This document shows, one piece after another, positions 3,656 through 51,148 of a stretch of 64,000 nt of DNA. Every line of letters begins with the position of its first letter. The stretch's first letter is position 1. A program made the position numbers and the translations under genes. The notes beneath the pieces are model-generated. The model searched no databases, was not told where the DNA came from, and saw only the letters and a list, made by a program, of their open reading frames with translations. The stretch lies in contig MGFR01000003.1 in NCBI GenBank assembly GCA_001791995.1, forward strand, positions 89,543-153,542, written 5' to 3'. The stretch is from Candidatus Woesebacteria bacterium RBG_13_46_13 (GTDB lineage Bacteria > Patescibacteriota > Microgenomatia > UBA8517).

Positions 3656-6601
3656 CTATTTGTAAGGCGACTCTTGCAGGAATTTCCCAGTATAGGACCC
3701 ATCGTTTTTCTTGATATCGACAACCGTCCCTTTGGCTACGACATTTCCTCCGTCTTCGCCTCCTTCGGGTCCCAAATCAATAATCCAATCAGCATTTTTG
3801 ATTACGTCCAAATTATGCTCTATCAGAAATACCGAGTTGCCTTTATCCACCAAAAGCCTCAGCACCTTTAATAGCCGCTCCACGTCCGCAAAGTGGAGCC
3901 CGGTTGTGGGTTCATCGAGAATATATACGGTTTTACCGGTGGCCCTTTTGGAAAGCTCTGTTGCCAACTTAACCCTTTGGGCCTCACCTCCCGAGAGCGT
4001 GGTTGCGGGCTGGCCGAGTTTCATATAGCCCAAACCTACATGTTCCAAGGTTTCCAGTTTGGCCAGAATTTTCGGATGGGAGTGAAAAAACTCGAGCGAA
4101 TCGTTTACCGTCATTGCCAAAACTTCCGCGATATTCTTACCCCTGTAGCTAACCTCCAAGGTTTGAGAGCTATACCTTTTACCCCCACAGACATCGCAGG
4201 TAATCCAAATGTCACTCATAAACTGCATTTCTATCTTTATTTGTCCTTGACCCTCACAGGCTTCACATCTGCCGCCTCTTAGATTGAAAGAAAATCTGCC
4301 TTTCTTAAATCCCATTGCTCTGGCCTCTCTGGTATTGGCAAAAACCTCCCGTACGGGGTCAAAAACTCCGGTATAGGTCGCGGGGTTACTCCTTGGGGTT
4401 CTGCCGATAGGGGATTGGTCGATAAGGATTACCTTGTCGATATTTTCTTTGCCCTCGAGCCTTATAAACTTGCCCACGTTTCCCCTGTAAAGAGGGTTAA
4501 GATAACTGCTTAAAGCGGGAAATAAAGTTTCTACGAGTAAAGTAGATTTACCCGAACCCGACACCCCGGTAATACAAACCAGCTTACCTAAAGGAAAATC
4601 CACATCAATGCCTTTTAGGTTAAATTGTGAAGCTCCGAAGACGGAGAGCGAAACCGGATTTTTGAGCAAAGATTGGGTTTTTAAAATATCTATTCTTCTT
4701 TTTCCGGACATAAACTTACCGGTCAGGGATTTTGGATTTGCTGAAATTTGTTTGGCCGTCCCCGTAGCGACTATCTCTCCCCCATCTTCCCCCGCACCCG
4801 GTCCAAAATCGATGACATGATCTGCGCTTCCGATCATTTCCCTGTCGTGTTCGACCACGACCACTGTGTTTCCCAAATCCCTCAATCTTTTAAGGGTGTC
4901 TATCAGCTTTTTATTGTCCCTTTGGTGAAGCCCGATGGTAGGCTCATCCAAGACATACAAGACTCCGGTTAAGCCCGAGCCTATTTGCGAAGCCAGACGG
5001 ATTCTTTGGGCTTCTCCTCCAGATAAACTCCCCGCTTCCCTATCCAGGGTTAAATATTCCAGACCCACCGAGATTAAAAACTTCAGCCTTTGTTCTATTT
5101 CTTTGATAATTAGCTTCGCAATTTCTTTCTCTCTGGCACTGACTTGGGTGTTTAGATTAAGAGAATTTACCCACTCGAGAGTTTTACTTACCGAGTTTGA
5201 GGTTAAAGCGGATATGGATTGGCTCAAGATGGTTACCGAGAGGGATTCCGGCTTTAGCCTGCTACCCTTACAAGTTGCGCAAAGCTGTTCCCTCATATAT
5301 TTCTCTATTTCTCCTTTGACATAATCTGAAGTCGACTCCCTGTATCTTCTTTCCAAATCGGCAACAATTCCTATAAACCTTTCGTAAATCCGGGTAAAGC
5401 GTCCCCAGCGGTTGGTACCTTCGACCATGTATTCGAAATCTCCTGTTCCGTAAAGCAGAATATCTATTTCGTCGGAAGACAGGTTTTTAATCGGAGTTTT
5501 TGGATCAATACCGTTTTCTTTGCAAACCTCAAGGTAGAGTCTTGAAACCCAAGTGTCGTGTTCGAACATGGTTGCGAAAGGCAGAATTGCCCCTTCGGTA
5601 ATCGATATTTCCGGAGCAAAGATAAAACTAGGTTCCACTTTCAGGATTTTTCCCAAACCAGAGCAGGAAGGACAAGCACCATGAGGAGAGTTGAAAGAAA
5701 AAGTACGGGGTTCTATCTCCGGAATCTGGATATTGTCGGTCGGACAGGCAAATTTCTCGGAGAATAAATGGTTTTCGAATTTCTTGGGATACTCGGGCAT
5801 CTCAAAACCTACGTCCTTAATCTGCGCCAGAACCGCATTGCCTTCCGAAAGATTCAAGGCCTGCTGAAAAGAGTCAGCCAGTCTGGAGCGCAGGTTGTCT
5901 ATAAAAACCTTATCTCTGATGTTGCCGAGACTTAGGCTTAGCTTATCTATAACAACTTCTATGGTGTGCTTATTAGTTTTTATGAGCACAAAGTCTTCCG
6001 ATAAATCTTTGATATACCCGTCAACTCTTAATTGTTTGTAGCCTTTGGCTTTTAGGTTATCGAAAAGGGACGAGAATTCTCCCTTTCTGTCGGAAACGAC
6101 AGGAGAAAGAATCATAAACCTGCCGACTTTGCCCTTCTTGGTTTCTTCACTTATAAGAGAAAAAGATTGTTCGACAATTTGATCAATGGACTGATGTGAG
6201 ATTTCCCTGCCGCAGACGGGACAATGGGGATGGCCGATGCGGGCGAAGAGAAGTCGCAGATAATCGTAGACTTCGGTAACGGTCCCCACCGTAGAGCGTG
6301 GATTTCTGGAGGTAGTTTTTTGATCGATGGAAATTGCGGGGGATAATCCTTCTATGTGGTCCACATCCGGCTTTTCCATAATCCCCAAAAATTGCCGGGC
6401 ATAAGTCGAAAGACTCTCCACATAACGCCTTTGACCTTCCGCGTAGAGAGTATCGAAAGCCAAAGAGCTTTTGCCACTACCGGAAACTCCCGTCAGAACA
6501 ACAAGTTTGTTCTTGGGTATTTCCAGATTGATATTTTTGAGGTTATGCTGACGCGCCCCTCTTATTCGTATTGTGTTTTCCATAACACGCAAACTTCCCA
6601 T
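3656..6601 (-). CDS. uvrA: Excinuclease ABC subunit A (UvrA). The true start is probably the internal MENTIRIRGARQHNLKN at 6583.
   Basis: Two ABC ATPase modules (GVSGSGKSSLAFD ; GVSGSGKSTLLVE), LSGGEAQR signatures, zinc-finger CxxC pairs. 981 aa. Confidence 0.95.
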   Translation of the reverse strand: MGSLRVMENTIRIRGARQHNLKNINLEIPKNKLVVLTGVSGSGKSSLAFDTLYAEGQRRYVESLSTYARQFLGIMEKPDVDHIEGLSPAISIDQKTTSRNPRSTVGTVTEVYDYLRLLFARIGHPHCPVCGREISHQSIDQIVEQSFSLISEETKKGKVGRFMILSPVVSDRKGEFSSLFDNLKAKGYKQLRVDGYIKDLSEDFVLIKTNKHTIEVVIDKLSLSLGNIRDKVFIDNLRSRLADSFQQALNLSEGNAVLAQIKDVGFEMPEYPKKFENHLFSEKFACPTDNIQIPEIEPRTFSFNSPHGACPSCSGLGKILKVEPSFIFAPEISITEGAILPFATMFEHDTWVSRLYLEVCKENGIDPKTPIKNLSSDEIDILLYGTGDFEYMVEGTNRWGRFTRIYERFIGIVADLERRYRESTSDYVKGEIEKYMREQLCATCKGSRLKPESLSVTILSQSISALTSNSVSKTLEWVNSLNLNTQVSAREKEIAKLIIKEIEQRLKFLISVGLEYLTLDREAGSLSGGEAQRIRLASQIGSGLTGVLYVLDEPTIGLHQRDNKKLIDTLKRLRDLGNTVVVVEHDREMIGSADHVIDFGPGAGEDGGEIVATGTAKQISANPKSLTGKFMSGKRRIDILKTQSLLKNPVSLSVFGASQFNLKGIDVDFPLGKLVCITGVSGSGKSTLLVETLFPALSSYLNPLYRGNVGKFIRLEGKENIDKVILIDQSPIGRTPRSNPATYTGVFDPVREVFANTREARAMGFKKGRFSFNLRGGRCEACEGQGQIKIEMQFMSDIWITCDVCGGKRYSSQTLEVSYRGKNIAEVLAMTVNDSLEFFHSHPKILAKLETLEHVGLGYMKLGQPATTLSGGEAQRVKLATELSKRATGKTVYILDEPTTGLHFADVERLLKVLRLLVDKGNSVFLIEHNLDVIKNADWIIDLGPEGGEDGGNVVAKGTVVDIKKNDGSYTGKFLQESPYK

Positions 6602-17654: not shown

Positions 17655-18335
17655 TCATTCTAGTTGGGAGAGGATAATCTGGTCAAGGAGTGGGGCCAGT
17701 TCGTCTTGGGAGGTCTTGGCTTTGATGTCCGCCTCGGCCAGAAGTCCGATGATTTTTTCGATTTGTTCTTTGGAAAACCTTTTTGATTGGCCACCGATCT
17801 TCAAAATTCTCCAGTCCTGGGCGTAGGGTAACTTCGTCAAATTGAGTTTCGCCCAGTATAAATCCCGGACGTGCCGGGACAAAAGAAAGAAAACCCGCTC
17901 AATAGGTTCCTTTTTTAACAGCTCATGGAAAAGCTGGAGAACTTTTACTGAATTGCCGGGATAGAAAGCATCAAGAAAGGCAAAAATTGTCTTGGGAAGC
18001 TTATACTGTTCAACCCGGGCCTTCTTTCCGACCGCTTTCCTGGTGCTTGCGTTCAGAAAACCGTCGTTGAGAATTACCAGCGTCCCGGGAAGTTTCTCCT
18101 GCTCGGCTAGGGCCCACTTGAGTTCTTTACTCGTCAGCTTGGCTCCATTTTCGACAATAAAGAGCCGCTCTCCCTCAAAAAGGCTGGTTTTAGCAAGCTC
18201 CTCCGCGAAGGAAACGGGCCCTCCCGACTCATAATGGAAAATTTGCCAGTTGCGCTTTTTGGCCACCGCCACGAAAGAGGCCAGTCTTTGGCGTAAGGCA
18301 GAATAATCGTCTCCTTCCAGGAATATGATTTTCAT
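17655..18335 (-). CDS. holA: DNA polymerase III delta subunit-like (short HolA)
   Basis: 226 aa. Pattern of a clamp-loader delta N-terminal/AAA-lid (IFLEGDD ... LFIVEN ... LKKEPIERVFFLLSRHVRDL). Shorter than canonical delta, so the call is tentative. Confidence 0.5.
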   Translation of the reverse strand: MKIIFLEGDDYSALRQRLASFVAVAKKRNWQIFHYESGGPVSFAEELAKTSLFEGERLFIVENGAKLTSKELKWALAEQEKLPGTLVILNDGFLNASTRKAVGKKARVEQYKLPKTIFAFLDAFYPGNSVKVLQLFHELLKKEPIERVFFLLSRHVRDLYWAKLNLTKLPYAQDWRILKIGGQSKRFSKEQIEKIIGLLAEADIKAKTSQDELAPLLDQIILSQLE

Positions 18336-18748
18336 TGGATGTATTTTAGATATTGTGCGACTAAATATCTAACCTTGTCGTAAAATTTGTTTTTTCCTCT
18401 TCGGGTATGGGGCAGTAGACTTCCGGAAAAGTTTCTGGGAATGTGGGCTATCTCATGAAGTAGTACCTTGTCCTTTTCCGTCTCCCCCAGCCTATCGAAC
18501 TTTTCCGATATCACCTCGATAATATAGCTTGGTCTGGTACTCAGAGTAATCTGCCAGATTCTGGACAAACCCCAGATTCTGGAGATGGCCCGGGTATTGG
18601 TGCCTTGTGACCTGACGCAATAGATGGATCGTGTGTCAAGCCAGTCTAAATGAAGATTCTTAGCAAGAACGATAACCCTTTTTTTGATATCGGGGGCGGG
18701 GTTCCACTTAACAGCTCTGCCTTTATTCGATTTTGTATACTTCCGCAC
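18332..18748 (-). CDS. Small putative Zn-metallopeptidase (HEIAH motif)
   Basis: 138 aa with LLHEIAHIPRNF (HExxH). Family not assignable by eye. Confidence 0.4.
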   Translation of the reverse strand: MRKYTKSNKGRAVKWNPAPDIKKRVIVLAKNLHLDWLDTRSIYCVRSQGTNTRAISRIWGLSRIWQITLSTRPSYIIEVISEKFDRLGETEKDKVLLHEIAHIPRNFSGSLLPHTRRGKNKFYDKVRYLVAQYLKYIQ

Positions 18749-18977
18749 CTTCCTTGACCTCCGAATCGACTTTTAATCCTACCACATCACCCTTTTTTGC
18801 GGAATCCTTCTTCTCGTGTTCTATTTGGATGGAGGCTACCGCTTGCTCAAAAAGATCTTCTCCTCCCCGTGCGAATTTGATTTTGTCTCCTGCCGAGAGG
18901 GTACCGTCAAGTTCTACTATGGCAACGCCTATTTTGTCGTAATAATGGGTAACTTTTCCTATTTTAAGGTCAGCCAA
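18723..18977 (-). CDS. Small EF-Tu-domain-2-like beta-barrel protein
   Basis: LKIGKVTHYYDKIGVAIVELDGTLSAGDKIKF..GDVVGLKVDSEVKEGAEVYKI resembles translation-factor domain-II barrels. Likely TTG start at 18977 preceded by GGGAGGTGAGGAG, overlapping the ruvC stop by 8 nt. The track ORF extends to 19043. Confidence 0.35.
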   Translation of the reverse strand: MADLKIGKVTHYYDKIGVAIVELDGTLSAGDKIKFARGGEDLFEQAVASIQIEHEKKDSAKKGDVVGLKVDSEVKEGAEVYKIE

Positions 18978-19479
18978 TCTCCTCACCTCCCTTCGAATAA
19001 GTATACGCGTAACAAAGTGCAACTGCCAACGCGTCCGCGGCATTGTCGAAATGGGTTCTTTTTCGAGCCTGGCTTCGGACTTTGGCGCCGAGCACTTTCC
19101 GAAGCGCTTTCTGAACTGCTTTCTTATCTGCCCTGCCGTTACCGGCTATCATCTTCTTAATTGTACCCGGAGCAATCTCGACAACCTCTATTTTGCTTTT
19201 GGCGGCGGCCATCAGCATTACTCCCTGCGCCTGTCCGACCCTCATAGCCGTTTTGGCGTTTGCAGCAAAAAAAAGTCTTTCCATGGCCATAACATCTGGC
19301 TTAAATTCCTCTAAAAGAGATCTTAATTCTTTATGGATATTAATAAGCCTGACTCCGGGGGAGCCGTCCTTGTCGGTTTCTATCAACCCGAAGTTCTCTA
19401 CGCAAATTTTCTTTTTGTTCAGAGTGATAAAGCCGAAGCCTGTTGTTGCAGTTCCAGGGTCTATCCCCAATATTTTCAT
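18970..19479 (-). CDS. ruvC: Holliday junction resolvase RuvC
   Basis: MKILGIDPGTATTGFGFI N-terminus and catalytic acidic residues typical of RuvC. 169 aa. Confidence 0.9.
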   Translation of the reverse strand: MKILGIDPGTATTGFGFITLNKKKICVENFGLIETDKDGSPGVRLINIHKELRSLLEEFKPDVMAMERLFFAANAKTAMRVGQAQGVMLMAAAKSKIEVVEIAPGTIKKMIAGNGRADKKAVQKALRKVLGAKVRSQARKRTHFDNAADALAVALCYAYTYSKGGEEIG

Positions 19480-19493: not shown

Positions 19494-20267
19494 CTAAGCG
19501 CCCTGAATATAACCGCTGAAGTTTTTTCTCCTTCTGAGCATTCCTTCACTGGGGTAAAAGTAGGAACAGTAGGCTTCATCATCAAAACAGGTTATCGAAG
19601 TACCCCTAAGATCACCGCTCACGTACTGGATTTTCTCTCTCATCAGGGAAAGGATTTCCTCTGTTGCGTGCAAAAGCAGAATATCCCCTTGTTCTAAAGG
19701 CCAATCGTTTACCAGCCAGCTGGACCCTGCACTCCAGAAATAAGGGGTAAGGTTTTTGTTTTGGCACATGTCCAGAAAATTACTTGTGAATTCTCCGTAA
19801 GGAGCCCTTGCATATCTTTTTACAGCCAGAGAAAAAATGTCCCTTCCCAAGAGCCGTCTGAAAGTCTCAATCCACTCATCGTAGTCTTCGTTCCACTCGC
19901 CCCCGGTCGTTTGCAGCACTGTGCCTTTTTCAGAATGCTCCATCGTATGATAACCGATTGTGTGACCCTCTCGGGCCAGCCTTTTAAATATCTCGGGGTG
20001 GCGGGAATCACAAATTATTGCAGCTCTTCCTACAGGAAAAAATGTCGCCTGAAGATGGCACTGCTTCAATAAATCCAATACACCGACCAAAGAATCAGGC
20101 TCGAAGCAATCATCTATGGTCAGGGCGTAAAGAGGTAAATCCGTTTCTAATTTGCTAATCACCCCGGGAGATCCTCTTTCGACTACTTCAGGTCTCAAAA
20201 CAAAGGACGCCATGCTTAATCCTGAGACTTTTAGGAAATCACGCCTCGAGAGAGCTTCCTTTTCCAT
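19494..20267 (-). CDS. Tat-signal polysaccharide deacetylase (NodB/CE4)
   Basis: N-terminal MEKEALSRRDFLKVSGLSMASFVL twin-arginine signal. NodB motifs (TIDDCFEP ; HTIGYHTMEH). Confidence 0.7.
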   Translation of the reverse strand: MEKEALSRRDFLKVSGLSMASFVLRPEVVERGSPGVISKLETDLPLYALTIDDCFEPDSLVGVLDLLKQCHLQATFFPVGRAAIICDSRHPEIFKRLAREGHTIGYHTMEHSEKGTVLQTTGGEWNEDYDEWIETFRRLLGRDIFSLAVKRYARAPYGEFTSNFLDMCQNKNLTPYFWSAGSSWLVNDWPLEQGDILLLHATEEILSLMREKIQYVSGDLRGTSITCFDDEAYCSYFYPSEGMLRRRKNFSGYIQGA

Positions 20268-20346
20268 TTGTGGGTATTATATGCAGATAATGCCGAAGAT
20301 TCAACCTAATTTGATATTTTTATGGAAAGATGATAACTTATGGGGC

Positions 20347-21429
20347 ATGAAAGAGCTTTCAAGAAGAGATTTTCTAAAGTTTTCTGCCTTAAGTTTGGGT
20401 GCGTTGTCGCTCCCTGACATATCCACCGAAACGGCTGAAACAATTTCGCCACTCGCCGATCTACCTCTTCTTTGGACTCAGGAAACTCCTCTAAAGGTCG
20501 AATATTTGTACAGCTGGGGGGGAAGACGCAATATCCCCGCTGATTGGAGAATGGTTTCGGGTGTACCTCTCGATATATTTACACCAATAAGGCCCGTTCA
20601 CCATAGCAATTTAGAGAACTTTACTTTGGAAACTCATTATCCCTACGCCTGGGTGGCTCCATTACCTCACCTGACTGGTTCTCCCGCCCAATGGGAGGCA
20701 ATTGTAGGCTGGGGAGTCCAAGATTCTATTCTTGTCTATAATGGCCAACTTGTCGGAAAACAAGGCGACTTAATCTCGTCTTATGCTTATGCCGAACAAC
20801 GAGATGTCTACCCCAACAAAATCTGGAACGTTCTTACTGCCCTTATTGGAATTAGTAATTTCGTGAAAAACAATGGGCCTTTGCTTCCGGGAAACAACTA
20901 TTCGATGCTGCAAATGTCAAATCTAATCGAAGACCTTGATGTCAGACACATTTACCGTAATGGTTTTTTGTCTCCTGGTGGGGGAGTCTGTTCGGTGGCA
21001 TCAACTCTCTCCAAGTCGGTTTTTATCGCCTCAGCGAGGGGTTATACGGAGGAGGTAGAAAGAACCCGACACGACCCGATTTACCAATACTGGACTCCCC
21101 CTCTTGAGCCGGGGATAACCAAATGGAATTCCGATGCTACCGTCGCGTATTACAGAAGGAATGCGCAGCCTTTTGACGAAGACAATCTGGACTATATATT
21201 TAAAATAAGGGAGGACTCTTGTCCTTTATATATTTCCGTTCGTGCGCATTTGGCCTTTAACGCCGAGCCGATAGAGGGCGATCTGACTTTTAACACGGAT
21301 GCCAGAATGGCCTTTGCGCTAACTTTGCAGAAAAACAGACCGGCGCTGGATGAACCCTCCGTTTTAGCCAACTTAAGAGAAAGCTATGCAAATTTTCACC
21401 ACTTTGAAGAAGAGATAATTATTCCGTAA
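20347..21429 (+). CDS. Tat-signal VanW-like domain protein
   Basis: ATG at 20347 gives MKELSRRDFLKFSALSLGALS. The track ORF starts further upstream at an alternative codon. VanW-like core GGGVCSVASTLSKSVF. Paralogous to 23741-25528. Confidence 0.6.
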   Translation: MKELSRRDFLKFSALSLGALSLPDISTETAETISPLADLPLLWTQETPLKVEYLYSWGGRRNIPADWRMVSGVPLDIFTPIRPVHHSNLENFTLETHYPYAWVAPLPHLTGSPAQWEAIVGWGVQDSILVYNGQLVGKQGDLISSYAYAEQRDVYPNKIWNVLTALIGISNFVKNNGPLLPGNNYSMLQMSNLIEDLDVRHIYRNGFLSPGGGVCSVASTLSKSVFIASARGYTEEVERTRHDPIYQYWTPPLEPGITKWNSDATVAYYRRNAQPFDEDNLDYIFKIREDSCPLYISVRAHLAFNAEPIEGDLTFNTDARMAFALTLQKNRPALDEPSVLANLRESYANFHHFEEEIIIP

Positions 21430-22651
21430 CTCCACAAACTTCGCTTTCGGCCTCAAACCCTGTTCCTGAAATATTTCCGGTAATAAAATCCCGAACTTCG
21501 GCTCTTGAAGCAAACCAATAATCGCTGACTAAATCCTCTGCCAAAGGATCGCCCCCGGGAGGCCTTCTTCTGGTCGTGTCCGGGGCAAACCAGTTATTCT
21601 CGGTCGTAAATTCATATCTGGCGGCAAAGGAAGGCATACCGAAACCCGAAGCCTCTCCTCCCGTACCGTTGGTAGCCAACTGTCTGACAAGTTGTCCGAA
21701 AATATCGATAAAGACTCCCGAATCGAAGTTGGTTTGAATGTTTTCCGCAGATTGTTCCCTTTGGAAAAAAAGGAGTCCTTTTCCTAAAAATCCGGCGGCC
21801 GCTAAAGCTCCCTGTGCAAATTCCTGCCTGGCTCGTCTCAACATGGCTTTGAGTACATATTGCTGCACTATATCTCTGTGTACATAGTTTGCATAATACC
21901 TGGCCCTGGATAATCTTAAAAGCTCTTCACCGTTGAGTGTTTGTAGTCCGGCTCTGAAATAGCCCATGTTTAAATCGTCGATTTCCCAGGGGACACAAAC
22001 CTCAAGTTGGTTATCATATAGATTCTCAACTGCCCTGATCAAAAACTCCATATCCACCAGGACCACAAAATCACAAGATAGACCGGTTGCGTCCTCGAGG
22101 ACTTTTTCCATTAGAGGCATTCCTCCGTTGATGTGTGCCTGGTTTGCCATGTATACCCGGTTGTTTCCTAAATATCTTGATACTTCAGGTACAGAAACCC
22201 CTCGGGGAACAGCCACGATTCTTATCTCATTCGTCTCTATGTCTAAGGACATCATCTGCATACTGTCGGTCAGTACTCTCTCACTACCTTTGCCCAAAAT
22301 TATAAAATTTATTCGGCCTTCATTGAGTTCTCTGTCGACCCGCTGCCAGTAGTCTGGATCAGCTTCGGCCTTTTCTTCTCTTCTGCGGTCGGCCACTTCG
22401 TACAAAGCCGGGTAAACATATTTCTCAAAATAACTTCTCGTATCCGGTGTTGCTGAAGGTTCAACCGTCGGCACCTCTTGAGTTGGCGGCAAAGGGGAAA
22501 AGGGGGAGGGGCTGGGCTCGAGAGTGGGTAACGGCGATACATCTCTTTGGGGATAATTACAGGCAGCCAGCAAGGCTGATGCCGAGATAAGTCCGGTTGC
22601 TCTGATAAAGTCTCTTCTGGAAAGACTTGTTGGTTTTTCTATTTTTGTCAT
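21419..22651 (-). CDS. Tat-signal LytR-CpsA-Psr (LCP) family protein
   Basis: SRRDFIRATGLISASALLAAC Tat/lipobox-like N-terminus. LCP core (RINFIILGKGS...DSMQMMSLDIETNEIRIVAVPRGVSVPE). Confidence 0.6.
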   Translation of the reverse strand: MTKIEKPTSLSRRDFIRATGLISASALLAACNYPQRDVSPLPTLEPSPSPFSPLPPTQEVPTVEPSATPDTRSYFEKYVYPALYEVADRRREEKAEADPDYWQRVDRELNEGRINFIILGKGSERVLTDSMQMMSLDIETNEIRIVAVPRGVSVPEVSRYLGNNRVYMANQAHINGGMPLMEKVLEDATGLSCDFVVLVDMEFLIRAVENLYDNQLEVCVPWEIDDLNMGYFRAGLQTLNGEELLRLSRARYYANYVHRDIVQQYVLKAMLRRARQEFAQGALAAAGFLGKGLLFFQREQSAENIQTNFDSGVFIDIFGQLVRQLATNGTGGEASGFGMPSFAARYEFTTENNWFAPDTTRRRPPGGDPLAEDLVSDYWFASRAEVRDFITGNISGTGFEAESEVCGVTE

Positions 22652-22668
22652 GGCTGCCGATTATACAA

Positions 22669-23748
22669 CTAACGATTTATCCTTTCCAAACGGTCGTTTC
22701 TGGTGGAAGGAAGGCTTGCTACTAATTCGTCAAAACCGACCCACCGATTCCAGTCTTCATATATTCCATACCTGTCTACAAGTCTTAGGTATCTTTCCAG
22801 CCTTGAAAAGTAAACCATGGGCTCCTCTCTGCCAAATACCAGCCTATTTTCAATCTTTCCCTTCAGAGCAGCCACGCCCAAAAGGAATCTTAAGGTTGCC
22901 ATATGATAATCACCAGGATCGGATTTTTGTTGAATCTCGTGGTGTCCCACAACATCCCAGGGCGTTAATCCAAACTGTCGCATCGCGGCAATACATAAAG
23001 AGAGGGTGTGGGCAAACTGCAGTCGAGGGGGTTCAATGTCCGAAGGGAATCTTTCCTCGAACCGGGTGCCTATTTGTTCATAACCTACCGCATATGAATT
23101 AAAATCGGTTATTCCCGCCTCAACAACTCCCTTCAGTTTTGAGGTAATTCCGAGGCTATCGAATCTTTCTACCGTTCTTGCTCTGCTGGGATCCAATTCG
23201 GGATGAATAGGGCTTATGTATACATGCAGTCCCCTGTCCGGAAGAAGGGGATTACCGCTGGCTGTCTGGGTCTGCAGAATTCCGTAACCTCCAATCCCCG
23301 AATCGTTTCTGGCAATCGGGGAATTATCCACACACCACTGGACGGTGGGACCCAAACCGTTTCCGTCCGGGTCATTGCCGTTTAAGCCCCAAACAGTATT
23401 TAGGGCCGTTCTTTCAGCACCGCTGAGTCGATAACGTTCTCCTCCGTCGTAATGAACTACTAGAAGCCTAACCTCCTGCATCGGATTTCTTTCCACTTCG
23501 TTTCTGTAGGTAGGAATTAAGCTGATTCCGGAGTCTTCTCCGTTTTTTCCCGTTTTTAACTTTATCAAGTTCCCCTCAGCGTCGAAACCCAGAGGGGTCG
23601 TTTTTGAAAGGATATCTGAAATTCTTTCGTTAGTTTCAATCGCGTTTTCCGGGATAAACCTTAACTTATCCATAAGTATGGCGGCACCCAAAAATTGCGT
23701 ACCTACTTTTAGAAAATCCCTTCTTGATAGAGTTCTCTCTTTAGACAT
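22669..23748 (-). CDS. Tat-signal N-acetylmuramoyl-L-alanine amidase (Amidase_2/PGRP-like)
   Basis: MSKERTLSRRDFLKVGTQFLGAAILM. Amidase_2-like motifs (LLVVHYDGG ; YAVGYEQIG ; VVGHHEIQQKSDPGD). Confidence 0.5.
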   Translation of the reverse strand: MSKERTLSRRDFLKVGTQFLGAAILMDKLRFIPENAIETNERISDILSKTTPLGFDAEGNLIKLKTGKNGEDSGISLIPTYRNEVERNPMQEVRLLVVHYDGGERYRLSGAERTALNTVWGLNGNDPDGNGLGPTVQWCVDNSPIARNDSGIGGYGILQTQTASGNPLLPDRGLHVYISPIHPELDPSRARTVERFDSLGITSKLKGVVEAGITDFNSYAVGYEQIGTRFEERFPSDIEPPRLQFAHTLSLCIAAMRQFGLTPWDVVGHHEIQQKSDPGDYHMATLRFLLGVAALKGKIENRLVFGREEPMVYFSRLERYLRLVDRYGIYEDWNRWVGFDELVASLPSTRNDRLERINR

Positions 23749-25528
23749 TTGCCCTCCTCATACCAACCCAGTTAATTGGAGGTCTACCGAAAATTGCGTA
23801 CTTATTAGTTTCGTCCACCTTAAAAAGTCTTACTTTGCCGTCAAAGCCTCGATTCGCATCCGAAACCAATAATGCCGTTTTTCCGTCTATCGTTTTTTTT
23901 GCAACAATAGCACCCACATGCCCGGCTCCCTGATCGTAGGGAACATTCTGTGTCACAAAAAGATCTCCGGGCTCGAAGTCCTCAAGTCTTTCTGTTGAAA
24001 CATAGGTGGTCCACCCACGTAGCACTCTCGGCCCGCCGCCTCCTCTTAACTCCTCGGGTACCAAATCCCTTGCGTAATTAATATCAAAACCGCTGATGTT
24101 TAAAGGCGAGTTGGCTCTTCCGAGAGATGAAAGAAAAATAACCCAAGCTACACATTGGGTTACCTGAGTTGGAAACCTCCAGTTTTGTTGATCAATATTG
24201 TCTAAACCGCAATTAAGACTCTCTTTCGTGCTAGCGTCTAGATTTTCGTACCACTCACTTTCCTTAATGTAGCTCCCTAAGGTTTTTTCGTGTCTCTCCC
24301 AATACTCTTCGTAGGGATACTCTCTAATATATCTTTCCACCAGTACCTGCACCGCCAAGATATCTCTGGTTAAGCTGTCATTGGCAAGTTCCTCCTCAAA
24401 GCCGCTTCGGTCTTCTTCGTTTCTTACTGATCGGTACAAATCTCTGTAGAAAATTCCCTCTCCCGGAGCGTATGATTCCATGAGCATTCCTTCCTGAACT
24501 TCGCTCGCCGGCGCGATTCCCCTGAGGTTGTAGTCGTCGTATGCTTCTTTTATCCTTTCTATTTTCGATAGTTGTTCTGCCAAATTTGGTCTTTCCCTTT
24601 GCAAACTGAGGGTAAGAAGTAGCCTTGAGTTGTTTCCAGTTAACCCGTCTGTCTGTCGTGGCCCCCTGATCGCCATAGCGGCATCGATAGAAATATAAAA
24701 ATCTTGTGAAGGGGTCCATCTAAAATCAGACTCTATTCCTCCGGTGCTGCTGATGGTGGCGTCGCCTTCTAAGGACACTTCAGGATCGAGGGGCCCGACC
24801 CAATAGGTGCTCCAATAAGAATGAGCCTGCCTTTCGTCTACCCTCGTCTCGGTTAACGAAAGAGCGTGTGAAAGTGTGGTCGCGAAGCCACATACTCCTG
24901 CTCCTCTGATCTGTACTCCGTTTATTTCTCCATAACGATACGCACGGTCGCCTCTGATGTCTAAGATACTAAGGGTCGAATATGACGTTCCACTTCTGAA
25001 TATCCCCTGTCTGAGTTGGTGCCGCAAAAACTGGGCCGCGCTTTCAAGGAGATTGTGTTGCTTGTTAGGGTAATACTCCCCAATCATTGAAAAATCGGCA
25101 ATGTCGGGTTCCCGCAGCTTATCTATAAACGATAAACCCGTTGCCTCTTCCGCCAGAATCGCTAAAGGCAAAGTCTTAACCCCCGTTGTGTGGTGCAGCG
25201 GTGCAACTTTGATTCTGCCCCCGTCAGGGGTTCTTAAGGTAAATATTTTTGAAAATGAAGCATCCACCCCACCTAAACTCCAAACTTCAATAGGTTTGGT
25301 TGAACTCAAAAAATAATCGTCACGAAGAGGAAAACAAACGACAGGGGTCTCTTCCAATCTAATTATCCCCGGCCTTTCCTCTATCCCCAACACCTCAAGG
25401 CTGTCATGACCAAGAAGGTTCTTGCCTCTCTCCCTCTGCATTTCTTGGGGATGCGTAATTAGCGCTCCGGCACCAACGCCCATTAGCTTTAAGAAATCTC
25501 TCCTGGAAAGTTTTTCACAACCGCTCAT
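23741..25528 (-). CDS. Tat-signal VanW-like domain protein with a C-terminal CHAP/NlpC-like cysteine peptidase domain
   Basis: MSGCEKLSRRDFLKLMGVGAGALITHP. VanW-like GAGVCGFATTLSHAL aligned with the 20347 paralog. C-terminal TQCVAWVIF ... GAGHVGAIVAKK (Cys/His of CHAP). Confidence 0.55.
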   Translation of the reverse strand: MSGCEKLSRRDFLKLMGVGAGALITHPQEMQRERGKNLLGHDSLEVLGIEERPGIIRLEETPVVCFPLRDDYFLSSTKPIEVWSLGGVDASFSKIFTLRTPDGGRIKVAPLHHTTGVKTLPLAILAEEATGLSFIDKLREPDIADFSMIGEYYPNKQHNLLESAAQFLRHQLRQGIFRSGTSYSTLSILDIRGDRAYRYGEINGVQIRGAGVCGFATTLSHALSLTETRVDERQAHSYWSTYWVGPLDPEVSLEGDATISSTGGIESDFRWTPSQDFYISIDAAMAIRGPRQTDGLTGNNSRLLLTLSLQRERPNLAEQLSKIERIKEAYDDYNLRGIAPASEVQEGMLMESYAPGEGIFYRDLYRSVRNEEDRSGFEEELANDSLTRDILAVQVLVERYIREYPYEEYWERHEKTLGSYIKESEWYENLDASTKESLNCGLDNIDQQNWRFPTQVTQCVAWVIFLSSLGRANSPLNISGFDINYARDLVPEELRGGGGPRVLRGWTTYVSTERLEDFEPGDLFVTQNVPYDQGAGHVGAIVAKKTIDGKTALLVSDANRGFDGKVRLFKVDETNKYAIFGRPPINWVGMRRANV

Positions 25529-26469
25529 CTTGCCTCCTCCTCGATGTTTCTTAAAAGATCCTGCCTAAAGGAATCCCAGTTGAAATAGCCTTCTCCCCGG
25601 ACATAAGGGTAGTAGGTTCCTATCAAAGGCTCTCCTGCTCTGGCCGTTCGGCCGTAGGCTCCGAAAAGCATCCTAAAATGGCTAAGCAAGGCATCCTCAT
25701 GAGCGGCTTCGTCATAAGGAAAGGCAAAAAAGTTTACCGGTCTGCCCAGAATTTGGCTTATCTCCTCCTGAGCCGTCACGGCATCGCGGACGGCATCGCT
25801 TTCGGAAATTTGGGGATAGTGGGGGTGGGCCATCCCGTGAGAACCCGGAATAAGAGTCCCATCTTCGAAGTACCCTTTAATAATATCCCAGCCAAGCTGG
25901 GTCGCCGAAGCAGTCTCGGGAATACTGGTTGGCCTGATAAAAAGAATGGACTTAAGACCATATTGCTTTAAAAGACAAAAACCATCTTCGTAATCAAAAT
26001 ACGGCATCCCCAAATCGATTCTGACAATTACGCTTCTTGCGGGAAGTCCGTGTTTGCCTTCCAGCCAACCCAAGAGGTCTTCTTCGCTCGGAGTGTAAAA
26101 ACCCATCTCTTGGATAATTCTCAATTGCTCCTCATAAACCTGCGGAGTCATATAGTATTCTCCATGGTCCGAACCGCTTACCCCGAAATTGGGATTGTGC
26201 TGTTCCAAAACCGGTATCTGCTGTTCAGGGTTGAAAGGAATCGCTTCTACTCCCGATAAAGCCTCAACTGTTGCCTCAGGAGTGGTAGTCGGAGCAATAG
26301 TGGGTTCCGGGGAGGGAGAAGGAGTGTCAGATGGAGCTAAACGAGTCGCTGTAGGTTCAGCTGTTGGGTCTAAGGTGGCACCGTTTCTCCTGCAAGAGGT
26401 TAAAAACCCAGCCAAAAAAAGGGCCCCCACCTTGAGAAATTCCTGTCTTGATAGTCTTTCTTTACCCAT
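25525..26469 (-). CDS. Tat-like lipoprotein, polysaccharide-deacetylase-like
   Basis: MGKERLSRQEFLKVGALFLAGFLTSC (RR replaced by RQ, plus a lipobox-like C). Pro/Thr-rich linker. C-terminal deacetylase-like region (HGMAHPHY ; FFAFPYDEAAHED). Confidence 0.45.
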   Translation of the reverse strand: MGKERLSRQEFLKVGALFLAGFLTSCRRNGATLDPTAEPTATRLAPSDTPSPSPEPTIAPTTTPEATVEALSGVEAIPFNPEQQIPVLEQHNPNFGVSGSDHGEYYMTPQVYEEQLRIIQEMGFYTPSEEDLLGWLEGKHGLPARSVIVRIDLGMPYFDYEDGFCLLKQYGLKSILFIRPTSIPETASATQLGWDIIKGYFEDGTLIPGSHGMAHPHYPQISESDAVRDAVTAQEEISQILGRPVNFFAFPYDEAAHEDALLSHFRMLFGAYGRTARAGEPLIGTYYPYVRGEGYFNWDSFRQDLLRNIEEEAR

Positions 26470-26563: not shown

Positions 26564-27211
26564 TTAGAATTTAAGCAGGTAGAGGATCTTTGCTTTAGTC
26601 TTAAGTTCCGTTATCCAGCTACTATAGGCATCCGACAGTTTTTGCTGGTAGAGCTGCTCTTTGACACTGTCTTTGACATCTTCAAGCTTGGCCTTGGCGT
26701 CAAATAGGTCCGTGTTCTTCTCAAAATAGGTCTTTATCTCCTCATCCGTAATGCTTATTTTGGAGCTCAAAAGAGCCTCGACCGTCTTTTGCAGGCGTAT
26801 CTGCTCGATTAAGCTGGCACGGGTTTCGCCCCTCATGGAAAGAGCCTCATCCAAAGTCAAGTTCTGGTCTTTGAGAAGAGTCTCAATTCTCTCTATTTCG
26901 GTATCAACAGCACTCTTCTCTACCGTGACCTTCTGCTTCCTGGCTTCCTGAAAAATCAGAGATTTCTCGATTAGGCTGTCGAGAACCTTTTGCCCACCTT
27001 GCACCTCCAGCTCTTTAATCAGGGAGAGCCTGGATACCGGCATTCCGTTGACAAAAGCGGCCACCAGCAGTGATTTACCCAGAAATAGAACCAGAAGAAC
27101 CGCAGTCGTTACCAAACCAATCTTAAACCATTTACCTCTGTAGGCTCTGGAGACAAATTTTTTGCTTGCCAGGAACCCCGCTTTGATGGTCTTTTTGTTG
27201 ATGGCCTTCAT
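26564..27211 (-). CDS. Membrane-anchored SurA-N/PpiD-like chaperone-domain protein (no PPIase domain seen)
   Basis: Single N-terminal TM segment, then a helical region resembling the SurA N-terminal domain. 215 aa. Confidence 0.35.
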   Translation of the reverse strand: MKAINKKTIKAGFLASKKFVSRAYRGKWFKIGLVTTAVLLVLFLGKSLLVAAFVNGMPVSRLSLIKELEVQGGQKVLDSLIEKSLIFQEARKQKVTVEKSAVDTEIERIETLLKDQNLTLDEALSMRGETRASLIEQIRLQKTVEALLSSKISITDEEIKTYFEKNTDLFDAKAKLEDVKDSVKEQLYQQKLSDAYSSWITELKTKAKILYLLKF

Positions 27212-27216: not shown

Positions 27217-28170
27217 TTATTTTAACACAAAAAGAATCACATTGGGCAAGCCTCTTCCCGGTCCGACCTTATAGCCTCCCCACCAAAGGGCGGTTGAGCC
27301 ACCGTTGTCGAGGTTTAGGGCGTTATCCATACCCAATGCCTTAAGAACTCTGGCACTCTCGGCGACTGTGGCGTTATGGACTACACCGATATAAACCAGA
27401 TTGCCTTTGTTGGCCACAAAACTCCTGGCTCCCTTACTGCCCATCTTGGGGTCGGAATTGCCTCCGAAGGAAACATTACCCCCGGATACCAAAAGAGGGT
27501 AATTCGACAAAACTCCGTTGGGGCCGGTGTCTCTGCCCCATTCCTGGATGGCTCCGACGAACCTGACATAGCCATCGCCAAAGATAACGCCGGGGTTTGT
27601 ACTGTAAACGTTTTTATCGCTATTGATATAGGTCTTATTCTTATTCATTACCAAAAAATCGAAGGTGTTTTCCTTGCCGGCACAGGAGGCATAATCCCTG
27701 GGACAAAAATAGGTCCCGTTAATTCCAGCATAGGCATTATTTCTGGCAGCATATTCGCCCAAGGAAAGTACGGGACAGTTGGAGGAACAATCCGAAGCCG
27801 AAGCGGTATCCACAATTACCCGAGTCGAGGCAATATCTGCCGATCCCAGACTAACTGTAAAAACCCCGACGTCTGTCGTCACGCTGACTTTGCCGTAACC
27901 GGAGACGGGGGGGGTTGTTGCCAATGCCGCGGTCGGGGCCGGAGTGGCAGTTGCGGTTGGTGTAACGGTCGGCGTTGCCGTCGGTACTGCTGTTGCTGTC
28001 GGTGTCGAAGAGATTTCTACCGAGGCTGTCGGGGAAGGAATGGGGGCTTCGCTATTTTCGGAAACTGTTTTTACGGGAACTTTCAGAAAGATAACTCCCA
28101 CCGACAAGGCAAAGGCCAATATTAAAAGTGGGATAGGGATAAATCCTAAGGGGGGCAGAGGCTTTTTCAT
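27217..28170 (-). CDS. Secreted protein with a T/P/A-rich linker and a phosphodiester-glycosidase-like (DUF2233/NAGPA-like) C-terminal domain
   Basis: Signal peptide, TPTATAVPTATPTVTPTATATPAPTA linker, C-terminal LDNGGSTALWWGG motif. Confidence 0.4.
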   Translation of the reverse strand: MKKPLPPLGFIPIPLLILAFALSVGVIFLKVPVKTVSENSEAPIPSPTASVEISSTPTATAVPTATPTVTPTATATPAPTAALATTPPVSGYGKVSVTTDVGVFTVSLGSADIASTRVIVDTASASDCSSNCPVLSLGEYAARNNAYAGINGTYFCPRDYASCAGKENTFDFLVMNKNKTYINSDKNVYSTNPGVIFGDGYVRFVGAIQEWGRDTGPNGVLSNYPLLVSGGNVSFGGNSDPKMGSKGARSFVANKGNLVYIGVVHNATVAESARVLKALGMDNALNLDNGGSTALWWGGYKVGPGRGLPNVILFVLK

Positions 28171-28183: not shown

Positions 28184-28747
28184 TTATATCTTTTTAAATT
28201 CGTCGCCGTGCCCCGGATATATCAGAACATTACCTAACCTTGTAATCTTAGCGATGCTTTTATCCAGTTCATCTTTTTCAGAATAATAAAAATCGGTCCT
28301 TCCCAAAGCTCCACCGGCAAAAATTAAGTCCCCTGAAAATAGCAGCTTTTCTTTTGCAGAATAAAAGCAAAGCCCTCCTGGAGTGTGTCCAGGACATTCA
28401 ATGACCGATAAAGAAGCCTTTCCTATTCCTATTTTGTCTTTTCTTTTAAGATCCTTTGTAATAACAGGGGCTGGGGAGAGCTTGTTTAACAAAAACTCGT
28501 CCTTTGCGCTCATCCATAAAGGAATCTTATAAGCCAACATCAACTCATAAGCGGAGCCAAGGTGGTCAAAGTGTCCGTGGGTTACCAGAACTTTCATGGG
28601 GGTTAAACTTAAATCAGCGATAACTCTTTCGATATAATCGGCATCTTCCCCGGGATCAATAATAACCGCTTCTTTGCTGAGCTGGTCATAGACCAGATAG
28701 CAATTTTCTGCCATTTCGCCCACGACCAATTTTTTGACATTTAACAT
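28184..28747 (-). CDS. MBL-fold metallo-hydrolase (glyoxalase II-like)
   Basis: VTHGHFDHLGS motif (HxHxDH), downstream His/Asp ligands. Confidence 0.75.
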   Translation of the reverse strand: MLNVKKLVVGEMAENCYLVYDQLSKEAVIIDPGEDADYIERVIADLSLTPMKVLVTHGHFDHLGSAYELMLAYKIPLWMSAKDEFLLNKLSPAPVITKDLKRKDKIGIGKASLSVIECPGHTPGGLCFYSAKEKLLFSGDLIFAGGALGRTDFYYSEKDELDKSIAKITRLGNVLIYPGHGDEFKKI

Positions 28748-28776: not shown

Positions 28777-29142
28777 TTATTTGGAACGCTTCCCGGACGA
28801 GGTTTTTCTGTGGGTACGCGAGTAAATCTTTTCGATTTCCCTCGGGGCTTTCTTGCGGACATAATACAGCTTAGCTCTTTTAACCCCTGCTAGCCCTTTT
28901 TTAACGATACTGATTTTTTCTATAGTAGGAGAATCCAGGGGGAAAATCCTCTCGATACCTATTGCCCCTGCCCCTATCTTTCTGACAGTGAACATCTTGT
29001 TGGCTTCTCTGCCTTTGATGGCAATTAAAATCCCTTCAAAGATTTGGGTTCTTTCCTTATCTCCCTCTTTTATTTTTTGGGAAACACGAATTAGGTCGCC
29101 GACTCCGACTTCGATATCTTTATGTATAAATTTGATTGCCAT
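28777..29142 (-). CDS. rplS: Ribosomal protein L19
   Basis: Conserved L19 sequence ([30 protein letters not shown]). A -10-like TAAAAT sits 9 nt before the ATG, suggesting a leaderless or short leader. Confidence 0.9.
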
Positions 29143-44866: not shown

Positions 44867-45583
44867 ATGAGAAGTCATTATTCGAGGTTGGCCAGTAGCG
44901 AAGAAAAAAGAAACATCAGGAGGGCTGCTACTTTTTTGTTTCTCTCCCTTGCTGCCGTAATCGTTCTTCTTACATTTGGACTTCCCACCATTGCCAAATT
45001 CGCCGCATTTTTGACCGATTTGAGGAAAACCGCCCAGCCTGTTGAAAAAAATGACACAACCCCCCCCTCTCCTCCTCAAGTTAGTTCCTTGCCTGATGCC
45101 ACAAATAAATCCACCCTCGAGGTCTCAGGCTCCGCCGAAGCCGCCTCAACCGTGATCTTAACTTTTAACACCTCCGATGAAGAGGTAGTCGCAGACCGGG
45201 ACGGCAAATATGTCTTTTCCCTAACCCTCAAGAAAGGCGAAAACAAACTGGCTTTCAAAGCCAAGGATGCAGCCGGCAACGAAAGTCAAAAAACCCAAAC
45301 TTATGTTGTTCTTTTTGACGAAGATGAGCCGAAAATCGAGATAGGCTCTCCCTCGGACGGAAGCGAATTTTTCGGCTCAATGCAAAGGCAGGTCACAATT
45401 CAGGGTACATCCGAAGCGGAAGCTGCCCTCACTATCAACGACAGACCAATTAAGGTGGAAGATGACGGAAGCTTTACTTATGCAACCACGCTCAGCGAGG
45501 GTGATAATATTTTTAACCTCAAGGCGACTGATAAAGCCGGAAACGTCACCGAAAAGTCCCTCACCCTGAAGTTTTCTCCTTAA
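44867..45583 (+). CDS. Membrane-anchored or secreted protein with bacterial Ig-like beta-sandwich repeats
   Basis: N-terminal signal/anchor (RRAATFLFLSLAAVIVLL), two similar repeats (EVSGSAEAASTVIL... / IQGTSEAEAALTIN...) typical of Big-like domains. Begins 8 nt after tRNA-Thr. Confidence 0.5.
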   Translation: MRSHYSRLASSEEKRNIRRAATFLFLSLAAVIVLLTFGLPTIAKFAAFLTDLRKTAQPVEKNDTTPPSPPQVSSLPDATNKSTLEVSGSAEAASTVILTFNTSDEEVVADRDGKYVFSLTLKKGENKLAFKAKDAAGNESQKTQTYVVLFDEDEPKIEIGSPSDGSEFFGSMQRQVTIQGTSEAEAALTINDRPIKVEDDGSFTYATTLSEGDNIFNLKATDKAGNVTEKSLTLKFSP

Positions 45584-46745
45584 GAGCCAGGGCAAGGGAT
45601 ATTCCCATGAAGCCCATTACCCAAGGATAGAAATAACTGTTTACGAAAAAGCCGTGTAGGCCGAGCGCGACCGAGGCACCCAAAAAACATAACCCGTAAT
45701 TACCTTTCCCGATGCTTCTGAAAATCTCTATTGCCATTTTTGTAAAAACCAAAAAACCGCCGACCCCAGTGGTAGCCAGAATAAGTAATAATCCCGAGTC
45801 CGATCCGGAACAGGAATGGGAATTAGGATCTATGAAACCCAAATATGATCTTTTGGCCAAACAAAGATTGTTGTAGCCAACGCCGAATAAAGGACTTTTG
45901 CTAAAAATTATTGCGGTTTGCCGATAATTGGTAAGTCTTGCGTAAACGCTGTATAACCTCTCAAGCTTCACCCCTTCACTTGCCCCCCTGGGAAGAAAAA
46001 CGGCGACAGCAATCAGGGCAGCAACAATCAGCAGGCTTAGTTTAACTTTACGCAGAGCAATCAGTATAGCTACCGAACCACCAATGAGAGCAATATAGGC
46101 TGCCCGCGTATAGGTAAAGGCCACCGAGATCAGGAAAAATATTGCCAAAACGGCAAAAACTTTTTTCCTTTTGAAAAAGAATTGCACTATCGAAAAAAGA
46201 AATCCGAAAACCAAAAAGATGCTGGTAAAGGTCGGGTCCAAAAATGTCCCCACCATCCTTAGCAGGTGATCATCCCAGCCCCAGGCGTAAAGCGCCCTCA
46301 GGTCGGGATAAACAAAATATTGAAACCAACCAAATACTCCGATTGCGGTACAAACCGCCATCAGCATGCCCAGCCATTTTTCTTTTTGCTTAACCAGTGT
46401 TACCGCAGCCAAAAACATAAACGAATATGCACCCAGACGTAGGAGATAGAGCCCTCCCAATAAAACCGCGGATGTTTTAAAAACAGCAAAGGAGAGTAAG
46501 AATGAAAAGCCCGCAAGATAAACAAAATTTTTTATATGCCGGAAGACTTTAGGCTTTGGAAACTTGCTCAAAAGAACCAAGATAAAAATAAGCCCAACGA
46601 TAAAATCCGTAGGATGAATAGGTATCGAGGTACCGCCTAAAGCTAATTCCATTCTGGTTAATTGCCCAAATGGAAATAACACCAGATAAAGATAAAAAAG
46701 CCCTTCTACTATTTTTCTCTTTGTTTTATCCATAGCTTGCTCCAA
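45561..46745 (-). CDS. O-antigen ligase / O-antigen polymerase family (Wzy_C) membrane protein
   Basis: About 10 TM segments with a periplasmic loop carrying the YTRAAYIALIGG motif. 394 aa. Confidence 0.65.
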   Translation of the reverse strand: MEQAMDKTKRKIVEGLFYLYLVLFPFGQLTRMELALGGTSIPIHPTDFIVGLIFILVLLSKFPKPKVFRHIKNFVYLAGFSFLLSFAVFKTSAVLLGGLYLLRLGAYSFMFLAAVTLVKQKEKWLGMLMAVCTAIGVFGWFQYFVYPDLRALYAWGWDDHLLRMVGTFLDPTFTSIFLVFGFLFSIVQFFFKRKKVFAVLAIFFLISVAFTYTRAAYIALIGGSVAILIALRKVKLSLLIVAALIAVAVFLPRGASEGVKLERLYSVYARLTNYRQTAIIFSKSPLFGVGYNNLCLAKRSYLGFIDPNSHSCSGSDSGLLLILATTGVGGFLVFTKMAIEIFRSIGKGNYGLCFLGASVALGLHGFFVNSYFYPWVMGFMGISLALALKEKTSG

Positions 46746-47455: not shown

Positions 47456-47835
47456 TTAAGTTCCTCCTTAAGGGCATAAATACCGAAAAAGTTGCCTCCC
47501 TTATTATATATTCTTTCTTTTTCCATATGGTATTAATAGTATTCACAGAAATATTTCCCAACAGATTAGTAAATGGGGGATTGGCTTCTGTAAATTTCTG
47601 ATTGCCAACCTAAAAACACTTAGTTCTTATGTTCTCTATGTTCAAAGTAGGTAAATATTGTACGACATAAGCAGTTATTGCTGTCTTGCTCTTTTCTTCA
47701 ATTTTTCCTTCCCTTGTTTTCGAATCCTTAGTTTTAGATTTTTAATTCTTTATTGCCTTCTTCCCTACCCTCTCGTCTCTTTCCCTTTTCACGCGTGCAG
47801 GTATACACGGACTCGTGCATATTATGTATTCAAAT

Positions 47836-48177: not shown

Positions 48178-48235
48178 GCTTATTTTATCTAATCGAATTA
48201 CATCAAAAGCGCTGACGGGTTTGCAACTTATTTAT

Positions 48236-48262
48236 TTCCATAAAAAAAGCGCCCTCCGGCGC
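48236..48262 (-). terminator. Intrinsic terminator (AAGCGCC-CTCC-GGCGCTT + T7) for the 49432-48494 gene
   Basis: Perfect 7-bp GC stem, 4-nt loop, followed on the minus strand by TTTTTTT. Confidence 0.7.
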
Positions 48263-51145: not shown

Positions 51146-51148
51146 TGT

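Follow-up and report, generated by a model that had tools for sequence, protein, structure and literature searches.

A lineage-specific island of putative Tat-exported cell-wall enzymes in a sub-clade of Candidatus Woesebacteria

We analyzed a stretch of 64,000 nucleotides from Candidatus Woesebacteria bacterium RBG_13_46_13 (contig MGFR01000003.1; referred to below as the window), in which six adjacent genes, g1 to g6, encode cell-wall enzymes whose N-termini resemble signals of the twin-arginine translocation (Tat) pathway. Our analysis suggests that these genes probably form a lineage-specific cell-envelope island, providing one sub-clade of Candidatus Woesebacteria with six Tat-exported enzymes that act on the producer's own wall. 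A sequence-only reading of the window had described six adjacent genes at 19494-26469 with LSRRDFLK-type N-termini, forming one coherent unit in a streamlined genome. The coordinates and leaders were confirmed, with the second arginine replaced by glutamine (RQ) in g6; the genes do hold together as a unit; and the genome is indeed a streamlined one, of the candidate phyla radiation (CPR) within the Microgenomatia.

The leader motif is nearly confined to this block. A regular expression for it, applied to the six-frame translation of the whole window, returned the six N-termini of g1 to g6 and one out-of-frame chance match, and a stricter motif scan of more than 80 related loci (given below by L numbers; about 1.46 Mb in all) returned the orthologs of g1 to g6 and one spurious match. 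Because both scans match almost nothing else, the clustering of LSRRDFLK-type leaders goes far beyond chance. When the first ~20 residues are compared with the consensus S/T-R-R-x-F-L-K, g1 to g5 read SRRDF[LI][KR] and g6 reads SRQEFLK, one residue off. The profile TIGR01409, with a trusted cut-off of 16.7, is passed by g2 (17.9), g3 (17.8) and g5 (19.0), and Pfam PF10518 matches g2 and g5 below its cut-off. The Prokaryotic Genome Annotation Pipeline has named HJX59206.1, a protein identical to g5, a 'twin-arginine translocation signal domain-containing protein'. The TIGR01409 passes and this name support the earlier assignment of the leaders to the Tat type.

Weak hydrophobicity sets Tat leaders apart from those of the general secretory (Sec) pathway. 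The h-regions of the six leaders are 11-13 uncharged residues long, and by a crude measure (the maximum 12-residue Kyte-Doolittle hydrophobicity, rather than TatP or SignalP) the leaders reach 1.3-2.0, compared with 2.8-3.6 for eight other proteins of the window whose N-termini are Sec signals or membrane anchors. Lipoboxes fitting [LVI][ASTVI][GAS]C can be read directly in two of them, LAAC in g3 and LTSC in g6.

The strongest evidence for Tat signals is the evolutionary conservation of the arginine pair (RR). It is invariant in every ortholog of g1 to g5, across at least five species-level variants and at g5 identities down to 28-40%, while the positions around it vary: S/T/N at -1, D/E at +2, F/L/V/M at +3, L/I/V/F/M at +4 and K/R/H at +5. 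This pattern shows that purifying selection holds the motif. RR is kept by all four orthologs of g1 and by all seven orthologs of g4 that we saw; the g2 orthologs in L002, L085, L087, L094, L095 and L096 all open with MKELSRRD or FSRRDFLK; and in the g3 family both RR and the lipobox cysteine are present in 16/16 homologs with complete N-termini (46-73% identity). The g5 family comprises about 60 full-length representatives among 1.84 billion proteins, many of them with an RR leader, and its more distant members carry Sec-lipoprotein signals instead. The leaders thus read as canonical Tat signals, with those of g3 and g6 of the Tat-lipoprotein type.

Several observations weigh against Tat export. 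In the TIGR01409 search, g1 scored 13.9 bits, below the cut-off, and g4 and g6 gave no match. The four non-lipoprotein leaders (g1, g2, g4 and g5) have, on direct reading, no obvious AxA cleavage site, and g6 has lost the second arginine in at least two lineages. Neither tatA nor tatC was found in the window, in the ~10 kb beyond each of its ends, or in any island-bearing or related locus. In this search, TatA, TatB and TatC of E. coli and B. subtilis served as phmmer queries against all open reading frames (ORFs) of the window and the related loci, and the sole match was an unrelated Calditerrivibrio TatA; the ~10 kb extensions contained no Tat Pfam families. In published surveys, Tat is patchy in CPR bacteria, being complete in a single genome among the Saccharibacteria compared (PMC6031116), and freshwater CPR classes are scored as lacking the KEGG Tat module (PMC9166423, supplementary table), a class-level score that is uninformative for the present genome.

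These absences, the rarity of Tat in CPR bacteria and the tolerance of g6 for RQ or RN with its lipobox kept would all fit a genome that has no TatAC, in which the leaders use the Sec route or the motif is retained for another reason. We consider this unlikely: an RR pair that stays invariant over dozens of orthologs as its flanks drift would seem to call for a receptor that recognizes it, the weakly hydrophobic h-regions are unlike the Sec and anchor N-termini of the same genome, and TatA and TatC have both been reported in some Microgenomatia (PMC9166423). We infer Tat export of the six proteins with good support rather than by demonstration, because the search for tatA and tatC covered the window, its flanks and related loci rather than the whole genome. 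A bolder idea is that the island-bearers lack TatA and TatC and read the conserved RR by another, undescribed route; in a milder version, tatAC would occur only in island-bearers, so that the Tat system of these reduced genomes would be essentially dedicated to a mobile wall-editing module, the g5-g2-g1 core of which recurs in L095. Even taken jointly, these two versions are a long shot.

The leader of g6 deserves separate treatment. It reads RQ in the window, L084 and L086 and RN in L096, and RR is present in the orthologs of L087 (INRRAFLK) and L094 (FTRRDFVN...LLAAC); the lipobox is retained in all orthologs seen (L084, L086, L087, L094 and L096). The loss of the arginine implies that the Tat dependence of g6 is not absolute. 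On this comparison the g6 lipoprotein appears to be drifting from Tat toward Sec export, its motif having decayed from RR to RQ in the present genome.

The likeness of the six leaders had also been taken as a sign of signal-peptide shuffling or duplication, in which a single module was lately copied, shuffled or gene-converted onto unrelated catalytic domains. The n-regions do resemble one another beyond the core (M-S/G-K-E-R/K-L) across non-homologous proteins, as such copying would predict. At the DNA level, the alignment of the leader codons gave no sign of recent leader duplication: the eight shared LSRRDFLK codons have a mean third-position identity of 37.5% and use differing synonymous codons, and identity in the flanks is at the random level (5-13/24 nt upstream and 11-21/45 nt downstream of the core). 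Moreover, orthologs of each gene at 65-80% DnaE identity already own RR leaders, as do distant members of the g3 and g5 families in other genomic contexts, so that each family has its own RR leader beyond the present genome. Finally, LSRRDFLK is the consensus of Tat-signal hidden Markov models, with which the leaders align from profile position 1. The leaders therefore look alike because each fits the universal S/T-R-R-x-F-L-K consensus and not through copying; these comparisons largely refute a recent leader duplication, and we regard it, like an exchange of leaders in the distant past, as highly improbable.

The mature domains point to wall and glycopolymer modification in all six cases, as had been claimed. 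Pfam profiles for VanW, LytR_cpsA_psr, Amidase_2, CHAP and Polysacc_deac_1 confirmed the assignments of g1, g3, g4 and g6, placed VanW in g5 at the cut-off, gave a weak score for VanW in g2 (18.6 bits, cut-off 27), and did not support CHAP in g5 (15.9 bits), where the assignment draws on a predicted CHAP fold. Polysacc_deac_1 (PF01522) matches both g1 (3.5e-15, 56.5 bits) and g6 (5.5e-10, 39.7 bits) above the gathering score. The NodB metal and catalytic motifs, read from the sequence, are intact in g1 (TIDD, HTMEH). In g6, motif 1 is IDLG, with the second aspartate replaced, and motif 2 is HGMAH, departures that suggest that g6 may be catalytically divergent. LytR_cpsA_psr (PF03816) matches g3 over profile positions 2-148 of 150 (5e-15, 56.4 bits, cut-off 24.6), and TIGR00350 gives 59.6, slightly below its cut-off of 62.3. 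Amidase_2 (PF01510) matches g4 with 29.3 bits (cut-off 26) over profile positions 64-131 of 131, a match that its orthologs share in precomputed annotation; g4 residues 31-200 (~170 residues) have no match in Pfam or the PDB.

The largest of the proteins, g5, combines several domains. VanW (PF04294) scores 26.1 bits over the whole protein and 27.5 bits when residues 197-443 are scanned alone, and 26 of the 46 family members match VanW at E<=0.01. Once a domain of unknown function, VanW is now recognized as the catalytic domain of L,D-transpeptidases, with a triad of Cys, His and Asp, and three of seven VanW proteins tested from outside C. difficile were active (PMC11348318). The candidate triad residues of g5 are well conserved in its family (Cys213 in 41/46, His236 in 40/46, Asp256 in 44/46; also Asp268 in 46/46), and they may be equivalent to the Ldt4/Ldt5 triad. 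By phmmer (4.6e-15), g2 and the N-terminal half of g5 are paralogous. In an AlphaFold2 model built from an alignment of 46 sequences, the C-terminus of g5 is predicted to adopt a papain-like CHAP fold with candidate residues Cys459, His537 and Asn559, and its best structural matches are phage lysins. Sequence profiles do not recover this domain: Pfam CHAP (PF05257) stays below its cut-off of 26 in g5 (E=0.018, profile positions 8-79 of 81) and matches 0/46 family members at E<=0.01. The beta-rich first domain (residues ~45-150) matched nothing in Pfam or the PDB, and no solved structure matched the VanW-like part. A PDB sequence search with the g5 profile and a search of genome contigs with the g5 alignment were likewise negative.

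Based on these assignments, we propose what the island probably does. Two NodB deacetylases, an LCP (LytR-CpsA-Psr) ligase, an Amidase_2 protein and two VanW-like proteins, one of them fused to CHAP, would build or edit the wall of the cell that makes them. Folding would take place in the cytoplasm, as would be fitting for thiol enzymes and for deacetylases and an amidase that depend on Zn, and a TatA/TatC translocase encoded elsewhere in the genome would export them folded. Once outside, g3 and g6 would be anchored by lipidation and the other four released or tethered by their leaders. Acting on the producer's own wall, they might edit cross-links, deacetylate the wall, attach glycopolymers and contribute amidase and peptidase turnover.

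The toolkit could instead be aimed at the wall of another cell, which an episymbiont would use as its host or its prey. Amidase_2 and CHAP are domains typical of lytic enzymes, the resemblance of g5 to phage lysins would be in keeping with such a use, and CPR bacteria are often episymbionts (PMC9166423). This seems fairly unlikely to us, given that four of the six were counted as wall-building or wall-modifying rather than as lysins (the LCP ligase, the two deacetylases and the VanW-type transpeptidase-like domains), that the two lipoproteins would be tethered to the producer's own membrane, and that the island has no secretion or contact apparatus. In addition, the genome makes its own peptidoglycan, and genes of that pathway (MraY, MurG, FtsW and a penicillin-binding protein) lie just outside the window.

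The coordinates of the genes, their leaders and the genes around them are collected in Table 1. The start of g2 was chosen from the N-termini of its orthologs, the mechanical ORF opening further upstream at 20152.

Table 1. Genes and leader segments of the island and its boundaries (window coordinates)
Feature	Position	Strand	Description and evidence
g1	19494-20267	-	N-terminus MEKEALSRRDFLKV, leader MEKEALSRRDFLKVSGLSMASFVL; NodB-type polysaccharide/peptidoglycan deacetylase, RR leader
g1 signal-peptide coding segment, residues 1-24	20196-20267	-	
g2	20347-21429	+	N-terminus MKELSRRDFLKF; VanW-like protein, RR leader
g2 signal-peptide coding segment, residues 1-23	20347-20415	+	
g3	21419-22651	-	N-terminus MTKIEKPTSLSRRDFIRA; LCP glycopolymer-to-peptidoglycan ligase; putative Tat-lipoprotein signal SRRDFIR...LLAAC
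g3 putative Tat-lipoprotein signal segment, residues 1-31 up to lipobox Cys	22559-22651	-	
g4	22669-23748	-	N-terminus MSKERTLSRRDFLKV; Amidase_2 (N-acetylmuramoyl-L-alanine amidase type), RR leader, N-terminal region of ~170 residues
g4 signal-peptide coding segment, residues 1-26	23671-23748	-	
g5	23741-25528	-	N-terminus MSGCEKLSRRDFLKL; RR leader, beta-rich domain, VanW-like domain (candidate Cys213/His236/Asp256), helical linker, predicted CHAP-fold papain-like domain (candidate Cys459/His537/Asn559)
g5 signal-peptide coding segment, residues 1-25	25454-25528	-	
g6	25525-26469	-	N-terminus MGKERLSRQEFLKV; divergent NodB-like deacetylase lipoprotein, leader SRQEFLK...LTSC (second Arg lost)
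g6 lipoprotein signal segment, residues 1-26, RQ variant	26392-26469	-	
SurA_N_3-like (PrsA/SurA-type chaperone-like) membrane-anchored protein	26564-27211	-	Sec-type hydrophobic anchor; PF13624 3.2e-07; maximum 12-residue hydrophobicity 2.9
NAGPA (phosphodiester glycosidase) protein	27217-28170	-	Sec-type or membrane-anchor N-terminus; PF09992 2.1e-13
Metallo-beta-lactamase-fold hydrolase, first gene of inserted block	28184-28747	-	PF00753 3e-28
rplS (ribosomal protein L19), upstream island boundary	28777-29142	-	Pfam Ribosomal_L19 in L001
ruvC, downstream island boundary	18970-19479	-	Pfam RuvC in orthologous loci and synteny

Comparison with related loci outlines the island. It occupies about 9.3 kb between rplS and ruvC, in the order metallo-beta-lactamase-fold hydrolase, NAGPA protein, SurA_N_3-like protein, g6, g5, g4, g3, g2, g1. 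In relatives, the conserved order is gatC-gatA-MFS (major facilitator superfamily)-gatB-dnaE-rplS-ruvC-(PhageMetallopep)-holA-glmM-pgi-ppdk-eno, and seven loci (L004, L006, L007, L008, L009, L010 and L045) keep this synteny without homologs of g1 to g6; at the island-lacking junction, ruvC directly follows rplS in L006, L007, L009 and L045 and lies ~250 bp away in L008. The gene for the metallo-beta-lactamase-fold hydrolase is in every island copy and in none of the island-lacking relatives, and the SurA_N_3-like gene is also found in L003, L084, L085 and L087. The NAGPA gene has no homolog in the other island copies compared and is particular to the version in the present genome. The site is the same, but the order and content of the genes are rearranged, in the island copies of L085 and L087 (DnaE identity 79-80%) and of L094 and L096 (65-66%), and the L096 version includes a second Amidase_2 gene and a sigma-70 factor gene (5353-6216).

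In a neighbour-joining tree of DnaE, the island-bearers formed one clade in 134/200 bootstraps; this monophyly, in a single-gene tree, would make a single acquisition of the island the simplest reading. The nearest species by DnaE, at 60-68% identity, are metagenome-assembled genomes (MAGs) of Woesebacteria or Microgenomates. At closer range, the g5 protein is identical in OGM09691.1 (RBG_13_46_13) and HJX59206.1, and g3 is identical in Ca. Woesebacteria RBG_19FT_COMBO_47_8. Part of the block also occurs in an unrelated context: at L095 7871-13166 (JGI Ga0209254_10000132), genes for a Beta-lactamase2-like protein, a g5-like VanW/CHAP protein, a g2-like protein and a g1-like deacetylase are adjacent, and all four proteins are led by RR. 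This arrangement suggests a portable core module made up of g5, g2 and g1.

The endolysin-like domains, and a slot whose cargo differs between lineages, could also be what remains of a prophage lysis cassette or other mobile element. We rejected this explanation as exceedingly improbable. A search of 2.9 million viral contigs returned no relative of the g5 family, and the block has no integrase, capsid, terminase or holin genes; its GC content equals that of its surroundings, and the island has persisted, with rearrangements, across a deep divergence that reaches down to 65% DnaE identity.

A number of smaller features of the block can be noted. The convergent genes g2 and g3 share 11 bp at their 3' ends (21419-21429). 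The co-oriented pairs overlap by 4 bp (g6/g5) and 8 bp (g5/g4), which is consistent with translational coupling, and strong GGAGG ribosome-binding sites are present at g4 and g5. Promoter-like TTGxxx-17/18-TATAAT sites at 20276-20304 and 22660-22689, both on the minus strand, end 8-9 nt 5' of the start codons of g1 and g3, which hints that the transcripts of these two genes may be leaderless or have very short leaders. In promoter and terminator scans of the island, counts were no higher than in shuffled controls.

What lies between rplS and ruvC varies among Woesebacteria: in L004 (13896-15265) this slot holds a YraN-like gene, an Fe/Mn superoxide dismutase gene and a small membrane ORF. It should be mentioned that five of the related loci (L004, L005, L007, L012 and L045) come from TPA_asm MAGs titled 'uncultured Gammaproteobacteria' or 'Pseudomonadales', yet have 56-68% DnaE identity and the full gene order, which indicates that these titles are taxonomically wrong. 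Downstream of ruvC, a PhageMetallopep protein (PF18894, 5e-18; window 18332-18748) is kept between ruvC and holA in all Woesebacteria relatives, and this conservation marks it as a housekeeping-context gene in this lineage and not a phage gene. Elsewhere in the window, the block at ~45500-52000 has a GC content of 0.40-0.41, against ~0.46 elsewhere, and contains a Glycos_transf_2-like ORF, large polytopic membrane ORFs and a small helix-turn-helix-like ORF; it may represent a glycosylation island gained by horizontal transfer. Next to it, the block at ~52000-56500 has a GC content of 0.52 and hypothetical ORFs up to a tRNA-Val gene (56348-56421, minus strand), and may be an integrated element beside the tRNA.

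The island offers a concrete set of putative Tat substrates in a CPR lineage, where Tat is rare and its cargo essentially unknown. Its gene content suggests that some Woesebacteria may edit their walls in three ways, by VanW-type (3-3) cross-linking, deacetylation and glycopolymer attachment. It also brings to light two undescribed architectures, a VanW-like/CHAP-fold fusion (~60 representative clusters, almost all metagenomic) and an LCP subfamily with a putative Tat-lipoprotein signal, and it shows that leaders of identical appearance need not point to shuffling, tempting as that conclusion is.

Set against known systems, the block combines familiar parts in a less usual way. Tat export of wall hydrolases had been called unusual in the sequence-only reading, which does not hold: AmiA and AmiC of E. 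coli and Salmonella are peptidoglycan amidases and classic Tat substrates, and without Tat these bacteria do not remodel their walls or separate their cells normally (PMC6231687, PMC8262268). The likeness lies in cell-wall amidases with twin-arginine signal peptides; AmiA and AmiC, however, are Amidase_3 proteins of the Gram-negative periplasm encoded by scattered genes, whereas here an Amidase_2 protein belongs to a CPR block of six genes that are all Tat-tagged. The VanW-like domains of g2 and g5 recall the VanW domain of the L,D-transpeptidases Ldt4 and Ldt5 of C. difficile, and the g5 family conserves a candidate version of their Cys-His-Asp triad. The two proteins are divergent, at or below the Pfam cut-off, and have neither PG4 nor G5 domains; they carry putative Tat leaders rather than membrane anchors or Sec-lipoprotein signals, and g5 adds a predicted CHAP fold; L,D-transpeptidase activity is putative in both.

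CHAP hydrolases include the lysins Ly7917, LysIME-EF1, LysGH15 and PlyC and the pneumococcal PcsB; the g5 domain is too dissimilar in sequence to be recognized by Pfam CHAP, and, in contrast to these, it sits behind a VanW-like domain and a long helical linker. As in the TagTUV proteins of B. subtilis, the LytR_cpsA_psr domain of g3 is full-length. LCP proteins are typically held in the membrane by a transmembrane helix at the N-terminus, and one distant match to g3 (31% identity) has this usual hydrophobic anchor, whereas the g3 subfamily uniformly has RR and a lipobox. Among CPR genomes, Candidatus Teamsevenus rhizospherense has a few predicted Tat substrates (PMC6031116), compared with six clustered and wall-related ones here. 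What is less usual is therefore the combination: a six-gene wall block that is Tat-tagged throughout, in a CPR genome, with an LCP ligase bearing a putative Tat-lipoprotein signal and a VanW-like/CHAP-fold fusion.

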